DNA from: Patescibacteria group bacterium
Lineage (GTDB): Bacteria; Patescibacteriota; Microgenomatia; UBA1400; CG1-02-47-37
NCBI GenBank assembly: GCA_038065055.1
Contig: JBBTRT010000001.1
Location: 48,893 to 112,892, forward strand
DNA: 64,000 nucleotides
Direction: 5' to 3'
The position numbers and the translations under genes are program-made. Below the pieces are notes generated by a model that was not told where the DNA came from, ran no database searches, and was given only the letters and a program-made list of their open reading frames with translations. This document shows positions 5,402-29,870 of the stretch, piece after piece; positions within the stretch are counted from its first letter, which is position 1, and every line of letters begins with the position of its first letter.

Positions 5402-6365
5402 TTGTTTCCCCGGCCCGGTAAATTTCCAAGCTTACTTGATCCCCTACTTGTTTTTTAGAAATCAACTCAGTTAATCCCTGCTCATCAATGATAATAATAT
5501 CATTTTCTTTAATTCCCGCTTTCTCTGCCGGCGAGCCTTTCACCACTTCCACTACATAAGCTCCCTGGGGTACGCTGTTTAAAATCGCTGTTTTTTTATC
5601 CAAAATCTGATACCTCACCCCTAAATACGGCCGGTTAAATTTACCGGTGTTGCTGAAATTATCAATCGAATCGGCAATGACATTAATCGGGATCGCAAAC
5701 CCGATATTCTGCCCGGATTGAGATACGGCCACATTTACCCCGATTACTTCTCCGCGATAATTCAACAACGGTCCGCCGGAATTGCCCGGATTAATTGCCG
5801 CGTCCGTCTGAATCACATTGGTTAATCCGGCGCTGATTCCCCTGTCTAGACCGGAAATCACACCCGTCGTCACTGTCGACCGGAATTCACCTAAAGCTGT
5901 TCCTATCGCAATTACCATCTGCCCCACCTTTAACCCATCCGAATCCCCCAAAGTCACTGCCTGAAAATTTCCATCCAAGTTAACTTGAATAATTGCCAAA
6001 TCAGTCACCGGATCGCGGTAGATTTTTTCCGCCTTCAGCTCAGTGTTATCCGTGGTAATAATTTTATATTCTGCCTGTAAATCATTGACCACGTGTTTAT
6101 TCGTCACAATTAACCCTTCAGTCGCGTCAATAATAAATCCCGACCCAATATCCTGCTCTTTTAACCAGAATCCTTTCGCGCTTATCGTCACTACTGAAGC
6201 CGAAACTCTATCAACTACTTCCACCACCAAGTTTTCTTCTTTAACCACCTCTGGCTTGGATCGCATTCTTTCCCCTAATGCTCCCCCCACCAATCCCACG
6301 CTTAAAACAAAAATAAAAGCGAGCGCAATTGCAATTTTTTTACTTTTTGGCATCCTTGGCTTCAA
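5361..6365 (-). CDS. HtrA/DegP-family serine protease with PDZ domain
   Basis: N-terminal TM anchor. Trypsin-like catalytic Ser motif GNSGGPL with a His context (TNKHV). C-terminal PDZ-like region. Confidence 0.8.
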   Translation of the reverse strand: MKPRMPKSKKIAIALAFIFVLSVGLVGGALGERMRSKPEVVKEENLVVEVVDRVSASVVTISAKGFWLKEQDIGSGFIIDATEGLIVTNKHVVNDLQAEYKIITTDNTELKAEKIYRDPVTDLAIIQVNLDGNFQAVTLGDSDGLKVGQMVIAIGTALGEFRSTVTTGVISGLDRGISAGLTNVIQTDAAINPGNSGGPLLNYRGEVIGVNVAVSQSGQNIGFAIPINVIADSIDNFSNTGKFNRPYLGVRYQILDKKTAILNSVPQGAYVVEVVKGSPAEKAGIKENDIIIIDEQGLTELISKKQVGDQVSLEIYRAGETINLTVTLAELGEP

Positions 6366-8211: not shown

Positions 8212-8766
8212 TTAAAAAGGAATATCGTCCGGATTAACGGTTGGTTTTTGTTCTTCTTTCGGTTCCTCTTTGGCTTTGGCCGCTGTTTTTCTCGCCGGCG
8301 CTTTTTCTTCCGCTGCCGGGGGAGGCGCTACTTCAACTGGAATGGCTTCAACTGCCACCGCTTCCGGCTGGTATTCTTCCTGCTGTTGCTGTTCATAACT
8401 GGCGCCGCCTTCCATGCCGTCTTTGCGCTTGGAATCCAGCACAATCATGTTATCGATCACCACTTCCACGGTCGTTCTTTCCTGGCCATCGGCTGTGGTC
8501 CAATTTCTGGTTTGCAACCGGCCCTCCACAAACACTTTTCTGCCTTTAAATAAAAGTTCCGAACATAATTCGGCTAATTTATTCCAGGATACAATCCGGT
8601 GAAATTCAGTTTCTTCCTGTCTTTCCCCTCCGGCTGACGGCTGCCAGGAGCGGTTAGTCGCTAAACCAAAAGTGCAAACCGGCGTTCCCTGCGGCGTATA
8701 TCTTAACTCCGGATCGCGGGTTAAATTCCCAATTAATAAAACTTTATTTAACGATCGGCTCGACAT
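8212..8766 (-). CDS. ssb: single-stranded DNA-binding protein
   Basis: OB-fold N-terminus (LNKVLLIGNLTRDPELRYT), acidic/Pro-rich linker and the canonical C-terminal DDIPF tip. Confidence 0.9.
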   Translation of the reverse strand: MSSRSLNKVLLIGNLTRDPELRYTPQGTPVCTFGLATNRSWQPSAGGERQEETEFHRIVSWNKLAELCSELLFKGRKVFVEGRLQTRNWTTADGQERTTVEVVIDNMIVLDSKRKDGMEGGASYEQQQQEEYQPEAVAVEAIPVEVAPPPAAEEKAPARKTAAKAKEEPKEEQKPTVNPDDIPF

Positions 8767-25119: not shown

Positions 25120-25917
25120 ATGCGTATGTCTAAGCCTTTGCCTCTTATACATTTAATCGCCGATTACGGCATTAATGATCTCTCTTTTGCCGAAGTTATC
25201 CAAAGATTTAAATATTTACTGCCTGATTCTCAAATTTTTCCTCTGTCCACCCCACCTTTTTCGACTTTAAATACCGGTTTTTTAATTGCCCAGCTCAGCC
25301 TTTACAATCCCGGTCATCACGTCTTTATCTTTTCCAACACTGCTCCCCGGACCGACGACAAAAAGAAACGCTATGAAAACGAAGGCGAAAAATTAAAATA
25401 CGCCCAACTGGACAACGGCGCCGAAATTGTCGCCGTGGATGCCGGCTTTTGCTTCAGCTTTATTAAAAAACACATTGTCAAATTTAATTTAATCGACGTC
25501 CAAAATCAAGGTTCGCAGTTCCGCTCCCGCGACTTTTACCCCCCTGCCGCCGTCGGCATTTTCCTAGGCAAATATAAACAGTTTTTATCCCAACCGCTTT
25601 CGGTTAACGCCATTCCCAATATCCCTGTTAACCGGATTATGCACATCGATGGCTACGGCAACATCAAAACCACTATTCGCAAAAACAGCGTTAAATTAAA
25701 ACCCGGCACCCGCATCCGCGTCGCCATTAACCACATTTATCAAACCGGTTACTACGCCAACGGCAACTTTTCCGTCAAATCCGGCGATTTGGCTTTTGCT
25801 CCCGGCTCATCCGGTGGCGCTAACGCTTTTATGGAAGTCTTCTTACGCGCCGGCAATGCCTGGCGCGCCTTTTCCAATCCCCCGGTCGAAACCAAAATCA
25901 AAATCGAAAGTTTTTAG
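25120..25917 (+). CDS. SAM hydroxide adenosyltransferase / SAM hydrolase family (DUF62-like)
   Basis: N-terminal LIADYGINDLSFAEV and C-terminal domain motif IMHIDGYGNIKTTI, as in the SalL/FlA/DUF62 family. Its last 79 nt are duplicated at 28535-28613. Confidence 0.6.
   Translation: MRMSKPLPLIHLIADYGINDLSFAEVIQRFKYLLPDSQIFPLSTPPFSTLNTGFLIAQLSLYNPGHHVFIFSNTAPRTDDKKKRYENEGEKLKYAQLDNGAEIVAVDAGFCFSFIKKHIVKFNLIDVQNQGSQFRSRDFYPPAAVGIFLGKYKQFLSQPLSVNAIPNIPVNRIMHIDGYGNIKTTIRKNSVKLKPGTRIRVAINHIYQTGYYANGNFSVKSGDLAFAPGSSGGANAFMEVFLRAGNAWRAFSNPPVETKIKIESF
25835..25913. repeat. 79-bp perfect direct repeat, copy 1 (3' end of the DUF62-like gene)
   Basis: Identical base-for-base to 28535-28613, offset exactly 2,700 bp. 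Confidence 0.95.
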
Positions 25918-25944
25918 TACCCAAAAATTCGACAATTAAAAAAT

Positions 25945-25972
25945 TTGACAAAGTCATTTAAAGTGCTATCCT
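25945..25972 (+). promoter_or_regulatory. candidate sigma70-like promoter of the cassette operon
   Basis: TTGACA, 16 nt, TATCCT, about 30 nt upstream of the rSAM start codon. The -10 is weak. Confidence 0.3.
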
Positions 25973-26003
25973 ACGCTTACCTTTATTAAAAAATAAGAAA
26001 TTT

Positions 26004-27434
26004 ATGAGTAAGGAGTTCGCTCCCATAGCTCAAGGTTTACCTGTCATACAACATTCTCCGGAACTTCTTTCATCTACACATATAGAAAATACTCAACCTA
26101 AAGACTTGTATAAAACACTATCTGCTCCTCTTGACGTTCAAGTGGAAATAACAACCCTTTGTAATGAAGCGTGCATGCATTGTTATAATTTTTGGCGAGG
26201 AGCAAAGTTCAGAGAGGTTACCAATAATCTTCCCGATGCCACACTAGAAAAAGATAAAGTCTTAGTAATAGTGCATCAATTAGTCGAAAGCCAAGTTTTT
26301 GGGGTAACCTTTACCGGAGGAGAGCCTTTTCTTTTCAGGCAAGCAGTTATTGAAGGAGTAATATCCGCAAAAAAATCAGGGCTTGACTGTTCTCTGAATA
26401 GCAATCTTACCACAATTACTAGAAAGGATGCAGAATCTCTTAAAGACGCGGGGCTTGATTCCGTATTAACCTCGCTCCATTCTTTTGATGAAAATACCCA
26501 TAATAAAATAACCCAAAGAGAAGGATCTTTTAAACGCACTCTGCAGGGGATAAAAATTTGTCAAGATGTAGGATTAGATGTTGGAGTAAATATGGTAGTA
26601 ATGAAAATTAATCAACAACAGGTTTTCAAAACAGGAAAATTTATTAAAGATTTAGGAATAAAGGCATTTTCTGCAACAAAAGCTGTCCCTTGTCTAGGAG
26701 GAAATAATTTTTCAGAAATTGGTATCGATAAAAAAGCATTCAAGAAAATGATTACAGATTTAATTCTTTTGGAAAAAACGTTTGGAATAAATGTTGATAC
26801 TTTAATGGCTTATCCTCTTTGTGCCCTAAGCGATTTAGCAAGTTTTTGGAAGCTTGCTCAACACAGCTGTGGAGCAGGAACTACAACCTGTACCATAGGA
26901 TCAAGTGGCGATGTCAGACCGTGCTCTTTTGCAGACGAAACTTACGGAAATATATTTATTGACTCGCTTCCTAAAACATGGAAAGAAATGAAAGACTGGC
27001 GGGATGGAAGCCGTTTGCCAGAAGAGTGCGTTGACAACTGTAACTATTTTTCCCAATGCGGCGGAGGATGTAGGATGGAAGCGAAGTTTGACGGAAATAA
27101 GAAAGGAATGGATCCGTTAGCTACTGAACCTTTAGATGTTGTTTCCTTGCCGGTTTCTGACTTCAATCCTCCCCCATCCGATTTTTGGGAAAAACAACTT
27201 GTTGTTACTCCTAATCTTAGATTAAGGAAAGAAAATTTTGGAGGAATTATAGCACCCCAAAGACGCCAGCCAGTTTTTATTAATAGTACCGCCTACGAAA
27301 TTATTAATAGATTAAAAAATGCATCGTCATCATTTTCTTTTAAGGAAATTGGACATGATTTTAATTTATCGCCAGCTTCATCTGATTTCTTTTTTGCGCT
27401 TTTTACACAAGGGGTTTTTGGAGAAACTCAATGA
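26004..27434 (+). CDS. radical SAM/SPASM-domain peptide maturase with C-terminal PqqD/RRE-like extension
   Basis: CNEACMHC (CxxxCxxC), FTGGEPFL, and a SPASM Cys pattern (CGAGTTTC..GDVRPC ... CVDNCNYFSQCGGGC). The C-terminal ~90 aa are LRLRKENFGGII..FINSTAYEIINRL..FFFALFTQGVF. Confidence 0.85.
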   Translation: MSKEFAPIAQGLPVIQHSPELLSSTHIENTQPKDLYKTLSAPLDVQVEITTLCNEACMHCYNFWRGAKFREVTNNLPDATLEKDKVLVIVHQLVESQVFGVTFTGGEPFLFRQAVIEGVISAKKSGLDCSLNSNLTTITRKDAESLKDAGLDSVLTSLHSFDENTHNKITQREGSFKRTLQGIKICQDVGLDVGVNMVVMKINQQQVFKTGKFIKDLGIKAFSATKAVPCLGGNNFSEIGIDKKAFKKMITDLILLEKTFGINVDTLMAYPLCALSDLASFWKLAQHSCGAGTTTCTIGSSGDVRPCSFADETYGNIFIDSLPKTWKEMKDWRDGSRLPEECVDNCNYFSQCGGGCRMEAKFDGNKKGMDPLATEPLDVVSLPVSDFNPPPSDFWEKQLVVTPNLRLRKENFGGIIAPQRRQPVFINSTAYEIINRLKNASSSFSFKEIGHDFNLSPASSDFFFALFTQGVFGETQ

Positions 27435-28213
27435 GTAAGGATATAAATTCAAGGAAGAATTTAACAAATATAGCATTAGGATCTCAAGTAAAAGGTTTTG
27501 TTTCATTTCTTGCGAAAGACCCAAGTCTAAATATGACTATAAAGGATTTTAGACTTGGCTATATTCGAGCTTCAAAATTTTTTAAAATAAAAATTCCCGA
27601 GATAAAACTTACCCTTGTTTATAGCAGAAAAGAATTAGATAATCTATTTGGCCGTCAAACACCAGATTGGCTTGTTAGTTATGCAAACTCTTCAAATGAA
27701 ATTTTTATATTAAGTCCATCAGTTTGGGAGGAAGAGAGTTCTCATCCAAGAGATGAATTCAATAAGACCCTCTGTCATGAAATTACCCATTTATTTATTC
27801 GGCAAATTCATAACTCTTATGAACCCGTATGGCTTGAAGAAGGACTCGCTTATTATGTAGCGGGTCAAAAAAGCAGGTTAAAAAATAGCAACCCTATTTT
27901 TAATAATCCTGAAGCAATATTTCTTATAGATACAAGGAGTCAATGGAATAAAACTATTGATAGTCAGCCGAATGTGCCATATGCATTAGCGTTTTTATTG
28001 GTAAACTTTTTGATTAGGTGTTATGGTAAAGACAGGATTATAAATCTTTTAATGTCTCTAAAGGGGAGCTATAGCAAAAAGAGGTTTTGTCAAAAATTTA
28101 GAAAAATTTATGGAAAAGATATAAAGTTAATCTTAAAGAAATTCTTTTTTCGACAGAATATTAAATGGAAAGGGGGTGAGAAATATGTTCCTAGAATTAG
28201 AGAGAACACTTAG
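27431..28213 (+). CDS. MA-clan zinc metallopeptidase (Peptidase_MA_2-like), candidate leader peptidase
   Basis: HExxH (LCHEITHLF) followed 19 aa later by WLEEGLAYYVAG (third-ligand Glu context). ATGA coupling to the rSAM gene. Confidence 0.6.
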   Translation: MSKDINSRKNLTNIALGSQVKGFVSFLAKDPSLNMTIKDFRLGYIRASKFFKIKIPEIKLTLVYSRKELDNLFGRQTPDWLVSYANSSNEIFILSPSVWEEESSHPRDEFNKTLCHEITHLFIRQIHNSYEPVWLEEGLAYYVAGQKSRLKNSNPIFNNPEAIFLIDTRSQWNKTIDSQPNVPYALAFLLVNFLIRCYGKDRIINLLMSLKGSYSKKRFCQKFRKIYGKDIKLILKKFFFRQNIKWKGGEKYVPRIRENT

Positions 28214-28460
28214 TCTTGTCGCCAACAGCAGTAGGGATGTAGACGAGATGCCTCAATTTGTATCAATATTAAATGGTAATGGATTGGAACCGTTAACAGA
28301 AGCAAGCAAAAACTGCATTAGTCCTCTTCCACCTTTACCCACCCCCCCTTGTGTTGGTAAGCCACCACCCCCTTGTGTTGGTAAGCCACCACCCCCTTGC
28401 TATGGTGCACCGCCTTGCGTTGGTGTACCGCCTTGCTTTAATACTTGCTATGGTGGGTAA
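28185..28460 (+). CDS. candidate RiPP precursor peptide with Pro/Cys repeat core
   Basis: ATG at 28185 lies 5 nt after AGGGGGTGA (strong SD). The GTG at 28176 in the ORF track is less likely. 91 aa, ending PPCVGKPPPPCVGKPPPPCYGAPPCVGVPPCFNTCYGG. Confidence 0.6.
   Translation: MFLELERTLSLVANSSRDVDEMPQFVSILNGNGLEPLTEASKNCISPLPPLPTPPCVGKPPPPCVGKPPPPCYGAPPCVGVPPCFNTCYGG
28344..28391 (+). repeat. perfect 2 x 24-bp tandem repeat encoding PPCVGKPP
   Basis: CCCCCTTGTGTTGGTAAGCCACCA occurs twice back-to-back. Degenerate units continue to ~28440. Confidence 0.95.
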
Positions 28461-28534
28461 ATGGGAAAGTATGTCATAGGCGGTCGCGTCAGCGATAGAG
28501 CTCCACGGCTTTAGCTGTGAATATTTGTAAGGTA

Positions 28535-28613
28535 AAGTCTTCTTACGCGCCGGCAATGCCTGGCGCGCCTTTTCCAATCCCCCGGTCGAAACCAAAATCA
28601 AAATCGAAAGTTT
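28535..28613. repeat. 79-bp perfect direct repeat, copy 2 (orphan 3' end of the DUF62-like gene)
   Basis: Identical to 25835-25913. In the DUF62 frame it still reads [26 protein letters not shown] then TAA, overlapping the ahcY stop. Confidence 0.95.
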
Positions 28614-29870
28614 CTAAGTTCCCTCTTTCCAAGAATTTAAATACCGCTTCTGTTCCGGGGTTAATGTCTCCAAACCCATACCCATTGCTTTTAATTTTAA
28701 CTTCGCCACCATTTGGTCCAGCGATTTCGGCAACACATAAACTTTATTTTCCAGCTTGCCTTTATTTTTCACTAAAAACTCCGCCGCTAAACATTGATTG
28801 CTAAACGATAAATCCATCACATCTGCCGGATGACCTTCTGCCGCCGCTAAATTAATCAGCCTGCCTTCGCCCAATAAATAAACTTTTTTGCCTGATTTTA
28901 AAGTATATTCTTCCAAAAATTTCCTGATTGTCCGTTTGGATTTTTTAATTTTTTCCAAACCCGCCACATTTATTTCCACGTCAAAATGCCCGCTGTTAGC
29001 CATAATCGCCCCTGATTTCATTAAATGAATATGCTGCAAATCAATCACATTTTTATCGCCGGTAACCGTCACAAAAATATCGCCCAACTTAGCCGCCTGC
29101 ATCATCGTCATCACCCTAAATCCTTCCATCCCTGCCTCCAGCGCTTTCACAGCATCCACCTCCACTACCGCCACTTGCGCTCCATGGCCTTTGGCCCGCA
29201 TAGCCAAACCCCGCCCACACCAGCCATAACCCACTACCACCATAATTTTCCCGGCCATTAAAATATTAGTCGCCCGCAAAATTCCGTCCAAGGTCGATTG
29301 CCCAGTCCCGTAACGGTTATCAAACAAATGTTTAGTATCAGAATCATTGGTCGCGATTACCGGCACTTTTAGAGCTTTATCTTTGGCCATGGCCCGCAAG
29401 CGGATCACGCCGGTCGTTGTTTCTTCCGATGACCCCAAAACTCCCTTTAACTGCTCGGTTCTTTTAGAGTGTAACAAAGACACCAAATCAGCGCCGTCAT
29501 CCATGGTAATTTGCGGTTTAAAATCTAAAACCGCGTTTAAATGCCGGTAATAAATCTGATTATTCTCCCCTTTAACCGCGAACGTCGGAATTCTATAGTC
29601 TTTCACTAAACTGGCCGCCACTTCATCCTGGGTCGATAACGGATTCGAAGCACACAAAACCAAATTGGCTCCTCCGGCTTTTAAGGCCAGCATTAAATTA
29701 GCTGTCTCGGCCGTGACGTGCAAACAAACGCTTAAATTAATTCCCTTCAATGGTTTTTCCTTGGCAAACCGCGCTTTAATTAATTGAAGTACCGGCATTT
29801 GCTGGCCGGCCCACTCAATTTTCAATTTTCCGGATGCCGCTAGTTCAATATCTTTAATATCGTAATTCAT
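28614..29870 (-). CDS. ahcY: adenosylhomocysteinase
   Basis: 418 aa. [13 protein letters not shown]-terminus and the NAD-binding site [10 protein letters not shown]. Confidence 0.9.

Follow-up and report, generated by a model that had tools for sequence, protein, structure and literature searches.

Organization of the locus

The subject of this study is a three-gene module found in a 64,000-nt stretch of contig JBBTRT010000001.1 from a Patescibacteria group bacterium (the window). The module encodes a radical S-adenosylmethionine (rSAM) enzyme with a SPASM domain, a zinc metallopeptidase and a short open reading frame (ORF) at 28185-28460 on the plus strand, whose product ends in a ladder of cysteines set among prolines. 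This ladder ORF is very probably the precursor of an undescribed family of peptides made on the ribosome and modified after translation (RiPPs) confined to the candidate phyla radiation (CPR)/Patescibacteria, namely to Microgenomates that are relatives of Beckwithbacteria and Levybacteria. That it is the real RiPP precursor of the adjacent rSAM enzyme can be stated with high confidence. The coordinates of the features are collected in Table 1.

Table 1. Features of the ladder module and its borders in the window
Feature	Position	Strand	Basis or remark
Direct repeat copy 1: SAM_HAT-like gene (25120-25917), final 82 nt; left module border	25835..25916	.	82 nt, 99%
Promoter-like site: TTGACA, 16 nt, TATCCT, with TG	25945..25972	+	Followed by conserved 5' untranslated region and ribosome-binding site
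rSAM/SPASM peptide maturase, 476 aa	26004..27434	+	Pfam PF04055 E 1.2e-24, PF13186 E 8e-5
C-terminal winged-helix domain resembling a RiPP recognition element (RRE), maturase residues ~394-476	27171..27431	+	AlphaFold2 (AF2) fold, Foldseek
Peptidase_MA_2 zinc metallopeptidase, 260 aa	27431..28213	+	Pfam PF13485 E 5.7e-11
Precursor leader, residues 1-47	28185..28325	+	Alignments; holds PQFVSILN (28251-28274) and KNCISP
Precursor core	28326..28460	+	Pro-rich linker, six P-C-[VYF]-[GN] units, stop codon
Period-24 tract: two perfect 24-bp units and 8 nt of a third	28344..28399 (56 nt)	+	Polymorphic for unit number
Terminator-like hairpin 3' of the precursor, inside the module	28504..28519	+	Consensus match only
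Direct repeat copy 2: SAM_HAT 3'-end remnant abutting the convergent AdoHcyase stop; right module border	28535..28616	.	Repeat search, empty-site relatives

Translation of the ladder ORF gave a peptide of 91 aa, exactly as listed in the earlier note. The C-terminal 36 residues, CVGKPPPPCVGKPPPPCYGAPPCVGVPPCFNTCYGG, contain 6 Cys and 12 Pro. The core Cys are found at positions 56, 64, 72, 78, 84 and 88; five of the six are preceded by Pro-Pro, and each is followed by V, Y or F and then by G or N. Residues 1-55 include seven acidic residues, three basic ones and one Cys. Retranslation and residue counts agreed with the description made from the DNA before, that is, six Cys, five Pro-Pro-Cys, a C-[VYF]-[GN] pattern and an acidic N-terminal part with a single Cys. 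A strong Shine-Dalgarno sequence (AAGGGGGTGA) is present at 28170-28179, 6-15 nt 5' of the ATG.

The maturase contains the CX3CX2C motif (C53/C57/C60), which is kept in 27 of 27 family members. All eight Cys of the SPASM region (C273, C289, C296, C307, C342, C346, C352 and C356) are conserved, and the PF13186 (SPASM) score is above the gathering threshold. Homologues of the enzyme numbered 232, and every one with a named source is from Patescibacteria. The peptidase displays HEITH at residues 116-120 and EEGLA at 136. Only 30 homologue clusters were found for it, and the same module was present wherever genomic context was retrieved. This HExxH peptidase is presumed to be the leader peptidase; the end of its gene overlaps the start of the precursor by 29 nt. 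The order rSAM, peptidase, precursor was observed in at least eight genomic contexts with differing flanks (loci L001, L004, L007, L008, L010, L011, L100 and L101), the precursor always being third.

The C-terminal domain of the maturase was recognized by its fold. Pfam gave nothing for the C-terminal 104 aa, even at E 10, and a profile search of the domain against PDB sequences returned one spurious match only. The AF2 model of residues 372-476 (predicted local distance difference test, pLDDT, 84) showed a beta-beta-beta(-beta)-alpha-alpha-alpha arrangement, and almost all of its top Foldseek matches in the PDB were RRE domains, namely those of ThcOx, MccB, McbB, PbtF (RRE 8T19), TbtB, SuiB, LynD/TruD and lasso B1 (TMq 0.5-0.63, E 1.6e-3 to 0.6). 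With an RRE-like fold at this place, the enzyme would be a peptide maturase that binds the leader through its C-terminal domain, and the PQFVSILN motif of the precursor would be the obvious candidate for the strand that the domain binds.

The precursor family and evidence for a real gene

A word-indexed search of 5.8 billion protein clusters revealed 22 precursor homologues of 68-97 aa. When 1.84 billion cluster representatives were searched exhaustively with a profile, 16 precursor matches were obtained at E <= 0.001, including three long low-complexity proteins, one frameshifted copy and one fragment. Approximately 28 homologues are known. The precursor family is thus rare, with 16 profile matches in 1.84 billion representatives. 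When Pfam and NCBIfam were run on this precursor and on those of the wider enzyme clade described below, no match was obtained save a sub-threshold Cxxx-repeat (E 0.047).

The homologues share one layout, in which an invariant PQFVSILN and a conserved KNCISP precede a proline-rich core. The order of the units in the cores also recurs: C[VFI]G units come first, CYG units last, and the usual end is CYG(G)R. Three homologues, P0014, P0016 (L001:8001-8270) and P0146, continue for 12-25 residues beyond the usual CYGGR end, for example with CYGGRGEIEQSPVKGKTSKVSG. This extension suggests that a follower is present at the C terminus or that processing takes place after Gly-Arg.

Codons were compared among five loci for which DNA was available. 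In the core, synonymous differences per synonymous site (pS) ranged from 0.25 to 0.69, and the ratio of nonsynonymous to synonymous differences (pN/pS) was just 0.14-0.48; therefore the precursor frame is under purifying selection. In the leader pN/pS was mostly 0.5-0.9, and only its two motifs are conserved. The frame is kept at the related loci and core changes are mostly synonymous, which disposes of the concern that the ORF might not be conserved. The earlier note had also named 28335-28601 as the only antisense ORF of which the ladder might be the shadow, and took it for low-complexity mirror sequence. This ORF indeed mirrors the low-complexity repeat, and it extends into intergenic DNA that is not conserved.

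The frameshifted homologue, P0003 (84 aa, containing LVLVSHHPLVLVSHH; L003:8001-8255), is the same locus as window 28185-28460. Over the precursor, L003 differs from the window by two single-C deletions only, one in a C7 run (28342-28348) and one in a C5 run (28392-28396), and many neighbouring genes on its contig are split. The frameshift is a homopolymer sequencing error and is not evidence against the ORF. The earlier note had read the ladder ORF as a leader and a core that the adjacent rSAM enzyme modifies. This view of it as a RiPP precursor is supported by the three-gene synteny in at least eight contexts, the invariant PQFVSILN and the RRE-like domain of the maturase.

The putative modification unit

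Unit statistics were collected for 123 core Cys in 28 ladder peptides. The residue before Cys is Pro in 98 cases and Gly in 16. At position +1 Tyr is the commonest (71), followed by Val (41), Phe (9) and Ile (1), and Gly occupies position +2 in 113 of the 123 units, while position +3 is variable (G/R/K and others). The consensus unit P-C-[YVFI]-G is the sole conserved feature of the core. The number of units per peptide ranges from 2 (L010) to 6, and the Cys-to-Cys spacing from 3 to 14 residues. The maturases of the ladder loci are 51-98% identical.

Since unit number and Cys spacing vary freely while the enzymes stay this similar, each P-C-X-G unit may be regarded as a separate local site. 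A unit-autonomous, Cys-centred modification is, in our estimate, somewhat more probable than not. The variable spacing and the conservation of P-C-[YVFI]-G alone make the proposal of the earlier note, one unit as one rSAM site, more plausible. The rigid polyproline II (PPII) scaffold that it expected from the PP(PP) spacers is reasonable as a proposal.

A related and much larger rSAM/SPASM clade (30-44% identity) was found in other Patescibacteria (e.g. Parcubacteria and Paceibacterota), again with a precursor immediately 3' (loci L012 and L019-L064, at 30-40% identity, e.g. L020:1721-1864 and L034:1573-1725). These enzymes also have a C-terminal extension, and their precursors carry related leader motifs of the GFE[TS]IL and FVS[IL]L type (GFETIL, GFESIF, FAEVSLF). 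The cores of this wider clade are acidic and Cys-dense, e.g. ENYCPDCYDCDYNCEECDNN; they are also Cys-rich, and thus Cys is the constant of the substrate. They differ from the ladder in being built of acidic CxxC/CxDC blocks that have no proline spacers. In L012, the one wider-clade context examined in detail, the module has no peptidase. The wider-clade enzymes likewise gave no curated family match in NCBIfam.

Dynamics of the 24-bp repeat

The segments 28344-28367 and 28368-28391 are 100% identical; for the later units the identity is 67-71%. In 64 kb, chance cannot produce a perfect tandem copy of 24 nt. The duplication, which had been noticed from the sequence before, was reproduced by repeat comparison, and the same two-unit allele is present on 7 contigs of public assemblies and in a long-read assembly (L003).

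A one-unit allele was also detected. The 90%-identity cluster that holds the window peptide contains P0188 (83 aa), encoded on a 2.66-kb contig (L099, run ERR3858128) that covers window 25884-28564. This contig lacks exactly 28344-28367, corresponding to one CVGKPPPP unit, and shows 0 other differences in 2,657 nt. Its ends fall exactly at the points where the flanking 82-bp repeat makes 31-mers non-unique. The two-unit allele holds two repeated 31-mers and would likewise break such a contig. The one-unit allele is probably real, because the assembler of L099 does not read through repeats.

Similar pairs were found elsewhere. In L007 a 24-bp pair is perfect (CVGR/CVGR), the CVGT and CYGE pairs of L008 are near-identical, and the two units of L100 are one base apart. 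Adjacent units share states within a genome, such as the Lys codons AAG/AAG in the window and AAA/AAA in L100, or KPTPP/KPTPP in L101, and orthologous units differ between genomes. Synonymous and derived states that are the same within a genome and different between genomes indicate concerted evolution of the units.

The 24-bp duplication is very recent. The nearest relatives of the window peptide (P0001, P0005 and P0186) are built of six units in the same layout, and their first pair is diverged. As these relatives already have six units, the perfect pair of the window reflects a recent deletion followed by re-duplication, or conversion, and not net lengthening. Duplication-deletion cycling or gene conversion seems to fit better than net expansion. 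The earlier claim that unit number is evolving by repeat expansion therefore holds in part: gains and losses of units are supported by the range of 2-6 units, by the one-unit allele of L099 and by the independent pairs in other genomes, but net growth is not, the closest relatives being six-unit already.

The module as a mobile insertion

The module is a recent insertion, bordered by long direct repeats with one mismatch over 82 nt (89 nt in the blastn alignment, E 2e-39). In two Beckwithbacteria genomes (L013, 1360-1540; L014, 6470-6870) the site is empty, with a single repeat copy and no module; the gene order there is RecR, SAM_HAT, and then convergent AdoHcyase and PfkB. Between the repeats of the window the GC content is 0.31-0.39, compared with 0.42-0.49 in the flanks, and the sign of the GC skew is reversed.

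Approximately 65 nt of promoter-like sequence and 5' untranslated region (window 25941-26003) are conserved in the window, L001, L007, L008 and L018, where the upstream host genes are unrelated. Across loci the promoter consists of TTGACA, a spacer of 16-17 nt and TATACT or TATCCT. The conservation of these elements beside unrelated upstream genes means that the module carries its own expression signals. At the other end, the similarity between loci stops approximately 10 nt past the precursor stop.

In L101 and L102 the module is located at the same SAM_HAT/AdoHcyase junction, in a genome where the flanking genes share only 70-76% identity with those of the window. Identity between L101 and the window is 97.3% for the rSAM enzyme, 98.3% for the peptidase, 96.5% for the leader and 68.9% for the core; the peptide of L101, an allele of 82 aa, has CYGCYSTCYGR at its C-terminal end. 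L101 has a 74-nt direct repeat of its own (27-100 and 2770-2843), with boundaries that differ from those of the window. A near-identical module in a diverged genome implies horizontal exchange together with a hypervariable core. In L001, from Levybacteria, a direct repeat of 28-37 nt (5728-5764 and 8273-8309) lies on both sides of the module; it derives from the end of a different upstream host gene (DUF5676). In L100 the right-hand copy has been lost, and no significant flanking direct repeats were found around the module in L004, L007, L008, L010 and L011.

No recombinase, transposase or integrase was found between the repeats of the window, where there are only three genes. The long repeats on either side duplicate host sequence in direct orientation; such inverted repeats as were found were short and scattered and did not pair the module ends. 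The module thus does not fall among IS elements or transposons, integron cassettes or integrative elements. The viral contigs of IMG/VR contained no close relative, only rSAM enzymes of 24-27% identity, and gave no evidence for a phage vector. One idea is the single-crossover integration of a circle that carries one repeat copy.

Proposed biosynthesis

The explanation that we favour overall is an rSAM-modified RiPP family with unit-by-unit processing, encoded by a mobile module; taken as a whole, it is held with about as much belief as doubt. The C-terminal RRE-like domain would bind the leader, probably at the PQFVSILN strand. The rSAM/SPASM domain would then handle each P-C-X-G unit as its own locally defined site, and the HExxH peptidase would cut off the leader, probably near KNCISP. 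The modification proposed is a thioether from Cys S-gamma to the C-alpha of Gly(+2), or to the +1 residue, so that each unit would form one small ring on a stiff polyproline spacer, like in suisactin, streptosactin and enteropeptin. The unit number would shift when the 24-bp unit slips or is exchanged unequally, adjacent units being repeatedly homogenised. The whole module would be transferred horizontally, with the core as its fast-evolving part.

SPASM enzymes acting on Cys-rich cores mostly form thioethers. A short-range thioether per unit was ranked first because of this precedent, because Gly(+2) is nearly invariant and because small sactionine rings are known, although as a specific chemistry it is offered tentatively, from the unit pattern and from analogy. 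The small-ring sactipeptides (suisactin/QMP, streptosactin/GGG/GggB and enteropeptins/KGR) are alike in using an rSAM/SPASM maturase on a short leader-core peptide. Their S-C-alpha links are local, span zero to few residues and occur several times per peptide (PMC13361665, PMC12395415). The ring is 6-membered in enteropeptin and 9-membered in suisactin (PMC12395415); rings of the QMP subfamily enclose a single intervening residue, and GggB installs its rings processively (PMC13361665). By analogy, a Cys-to-Gly(+2) link in the ladder C-X-G would match the ring size of suisactin.

Several observations weigh against this reading. The maturase was scored with NCBIfam, and the 25 best of 76 matches were considered. 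Scores were far below the curated cut-offs for thioether enzymes, at 57-73 bits versus 300-850 for sactisynthases (AlbA 72 vs 850, StsB 72.7 vs 625, SkfB 56.9 vs 300), and the best matches were also low (NirJ2 142 vs 500, AhbD 113 vs 500, GeoRSP, TIGR04303, 113 vs 400). The ladder differs further from the small-ring sactipeptides in its C-terminal RRE, its polyproline-spaced repeat core of 2-6 units, its host (CPR and not Firmicutes) and the lack of Rgg/SHP regulation. The RRE assignment depends on fold matches with weak E-values. Modelling of the full-length maturase with AF2 gave a poor result (pLDDT 60), and in Foldseek the model came out next to generic rSAM enzymes (HydE, MoaA, SkfB, anSME, SuiB and viperin) that do not discriminate between chemistries. 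There is no exporter or immunity gene among the three genes of the module, and the one-unit allele is known from a single short-read contig. In addition, the core lacks the Asp, Asn, Glu and Thr acceptors used by ranthipeptides.

Ranthipeptides (PapB/freyrasin with repeated CxxxD, and SCIFF/CteB) resemble the ladder in having repeated Cys motifs, each crosslinked by one rSAM/SPASM enzyme, and the acidic CxxC cores of the wider enzyme clade are also of this appearance. Ranthipeptide-type clusters have reportedly been predicted by antiSMASH-type surveys in data sets that include Patescibacteria. The ladder unit, unlike theirs, has no conserved Asp/Asn/Glu/Thr acceptor; given this lack, the acceptor, if there is one, has to be Gly, Pro or the +1 residue. 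The best 25 of 76 NCBIfam matches of the window enzyme included neither a PapB nor a SCIFF maturase model, and the PapB model matched wider-clade enzymes only (63 and 47 bits vs 340).

Alternative explanations

The alternative that survives best is a Cys-autonomous chemistry, in which each Cys is either closed onto the backbone as a thiooxazole of the SbtM type or oxidised to a thioaldehyde/formylglycine of the anSME type, giving a ladder of soft-metal ligands that may, for example, bind copper. We consider it unlikely. Thiooxazole formation by rSAM enzymes has reportedly been described. The SbtM/GeoRSP enzymes, which make thio(seleno)oxazoles on Cys or selenocysteine, are SPASM rSAM enzymes acting on Cys with no distant acceptor, and Gly is the only conserved potential acceptor in the ladder unit. 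GeoRSP was among the three best NCBIfam matches and the SbtM model matched the wider clade (59 bits), but such scores are far under the family cut-offs, and the ladder has neither selenocysteine nor a Geobacter-type context. As for anSME, its C/S-x-P/A-x-R motif is not found in the core (C-x-[PA]-x-R is absent), TIGR03942 was not among the best 25 of 76 NCBIfam matches, and on a wider-clade enzyme it scored 65 vs 349. The L001 module lies directly 3' of genes for a heavy-metal P-type ATPase, a YHS-domain protein and a DsbD-like protein, which would suit metal binding; this metal-related context was met at one of at least eight contexts.

According to a second alternative the rSAM enzyme modifies the +1 residue or the backbone, by C-alpha epimerisation or by a side-chain C-C bond on Val, Ile or Tyr, and the Cys serve as disulfide or metal ligands. 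Such a reaction has a precedent in TvgB and TigE, which are rSAM/SPASM enzymes with an RRE and act as cyclopropylglycine synthases on short repeated motifs (xVGx, as in TVGG, and TIGSVS), each repeat being modified independently (PMC10878394). The ladder contains a comparable x-V-G-x unit: its +1 residue is always hydrophobic and beta-H-bearing and its +2 residue is Gly, resembling T-V-G-G. On the other hand, the GYW motif that is strictly conserved in, and specific to, cyclopropyl synthases (PMC10878394) was found in 0 of 27 family members, and on this ground membership of that group was rejected. Moreover, the ladder differs from TvgB/TigE substrates in its invariant Cys and in Tyr as the commonest +1 residue (71 of 123 units), and Tyr cannot give cyclopropylglycine. 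Cys is also the conserved core residue in the wider enzyme clade. Modification at +1 with passive Cys thus appears improbable.

Hardly better placed is a multi-core precursor, with Pro-rich spacers between units, from which the peptidase would free several small C-X-G pieces that carry the modification, or else a molecule of cofactor type. The combination of rSAM/SPASM enzyme, RRE, peptidase (in this case a metallopeptidase) and short peptide is that of PQQ (PqqE/PqqD/PqqF) and mycofactocin (MftC/MftB/MftE), whose peptides have a Tyr/Gly-rich reactive C-terminal end, and the parts list of the ladder module matches it. The PqqE and MftC models, however, scored only 64-69 bits against 265-381, and the ladder core is repeated and Cys-centred, with no downstream tailoring genes. 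Pro-Pro-rich spacers are poor substrates for general metallopeptidases. A freely varying unit number is typical of multi-core precursors. Repeat-core RiPPs that a dedicated protease cuts uniformly would be a further parallel, and such cleavage of repeat precursors is reported for WprP2 (PMC12957482). Nevertheless, the fixed unit order (C[VFI]G, then CYG) and the conserved CYG(G)R end suggest one ordered product, and the wider-clade cores are dense CxxC blocks with no spacers.

Finally, that the precursor is non-functional (whether an antisense shadow, noise of low complexity or an artefact of assembly, with the duplication an error of assembly too) has almost no probability and is for practical purposes refuted by purifying selection in frame and conserved synteny: the sequence is proline-rich and of low complexity, one database homologue (P0003) is frameshifted and repeat collapse could in principle give a one-unit versus two-unit difference, but the frame is conserved, no conservation is seen in the antisense ORF, two homopolymer errors on an error-rich contig account for the frameshift, and the two-unit allele is present on 7 contigs.

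Relation to described families and significance

The module shows the generic parts of the rSAM/SPASM RiPP class, that is, an rSAM core, a SPASM domain, an RRE (at fold level only) and a short leader/core precursor. Neither the enzyme subfamily nor the peptide is covered by a Pfam or NCBIfam model, and literature searches on CPR/Patescibacteria RiPP-rSAM and on proline-rich SPASM systems returned no description of the family. As judged from scores and motifs, it falls outside every specific rSAM RiPP family checked. Lanthipeptides were likewise rejected, as the module has only three genes and the core has no conserved Ser or Thr.

Put together, the ladder may represent a CPR-specific RiPP class in which each P-C-X-G receives one local Cys modification on a polyproline scaffold, the valency (2-6) is tuned by 24-bp slippage on population time-scales, a 2.5-kb recombinase-free module with its own promoter inserts at host-gene 3' ends with 28-89-nt host duplications, and the core diversifies far faster than the enzymes. 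In this complete form it is a possibility that we put forward with some reserve. CPR/Patescibacteria genomes are tiny and, to our knowledge, almost no secondary metabolism has been characterised in them. The module is conserved and exchanged horizontally while its core diversifies, which suggests that the product matters in an episymbiotic lifestyle; competition, adhesion and metal handling are possible roles. For enzymology, the module offers a minimal system for rSAM recognition of a four-residue unit repeated on a polyproline spacer, with natural alleles one unit apart and an enzyme that belongs to no curated family. With regard to genome evolution, it is a case where a RiPP core changes in repeat number and sequence much more quickly than the other parts of its cluster, and where a gene module is inserted at gene 3' ends with long duplications of host sequence.

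Neighbouring genes and further observations

The score of the SAM_HAT-like (DUF62) gene at the left border reached neither of the two Pfam gathering thresholds. The SAM_HAT stop overlaps the convergent AdoHcyase stop in the empty-site genomes. Together with PfkB downstream, 25120-25917 and 28614-29870 form an S-adenosylmethionine/adenosine salvage neighbourhood. A functional link of this neighbourhood (SAM_HAT, AdoHcyase, PfkB) to the rSAM enzyme was considered and rejected, as the module sits in unrelated contexts elsewhere.

In L011 (2488-3867 and 6558-7587), a distant locus, a second, divergently transcribed radical SAM gene was found upstream of the module, and a helix-turn-helix/DDE_3 transposase pair lies directly 3' of the precursor. 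The precursor core at this locus reads CDCDAGCFNCNCNCVIVCT.

One further protein, P0150 (322 aa, L098:4436-5404), contains many tandem T-P-x-C-[ILF]-G-[KRT] units. Its gene adjoins APH-like kinase, HopA1-like and LanC-like genes, and the group looks like a lanthipeptide cluster of class V type whose repeat precursor is giant. P0150 was discarded as a relative of the ladder, since it was matched through low-complexity similarity only, and the likeness of its units is a case of convergence.

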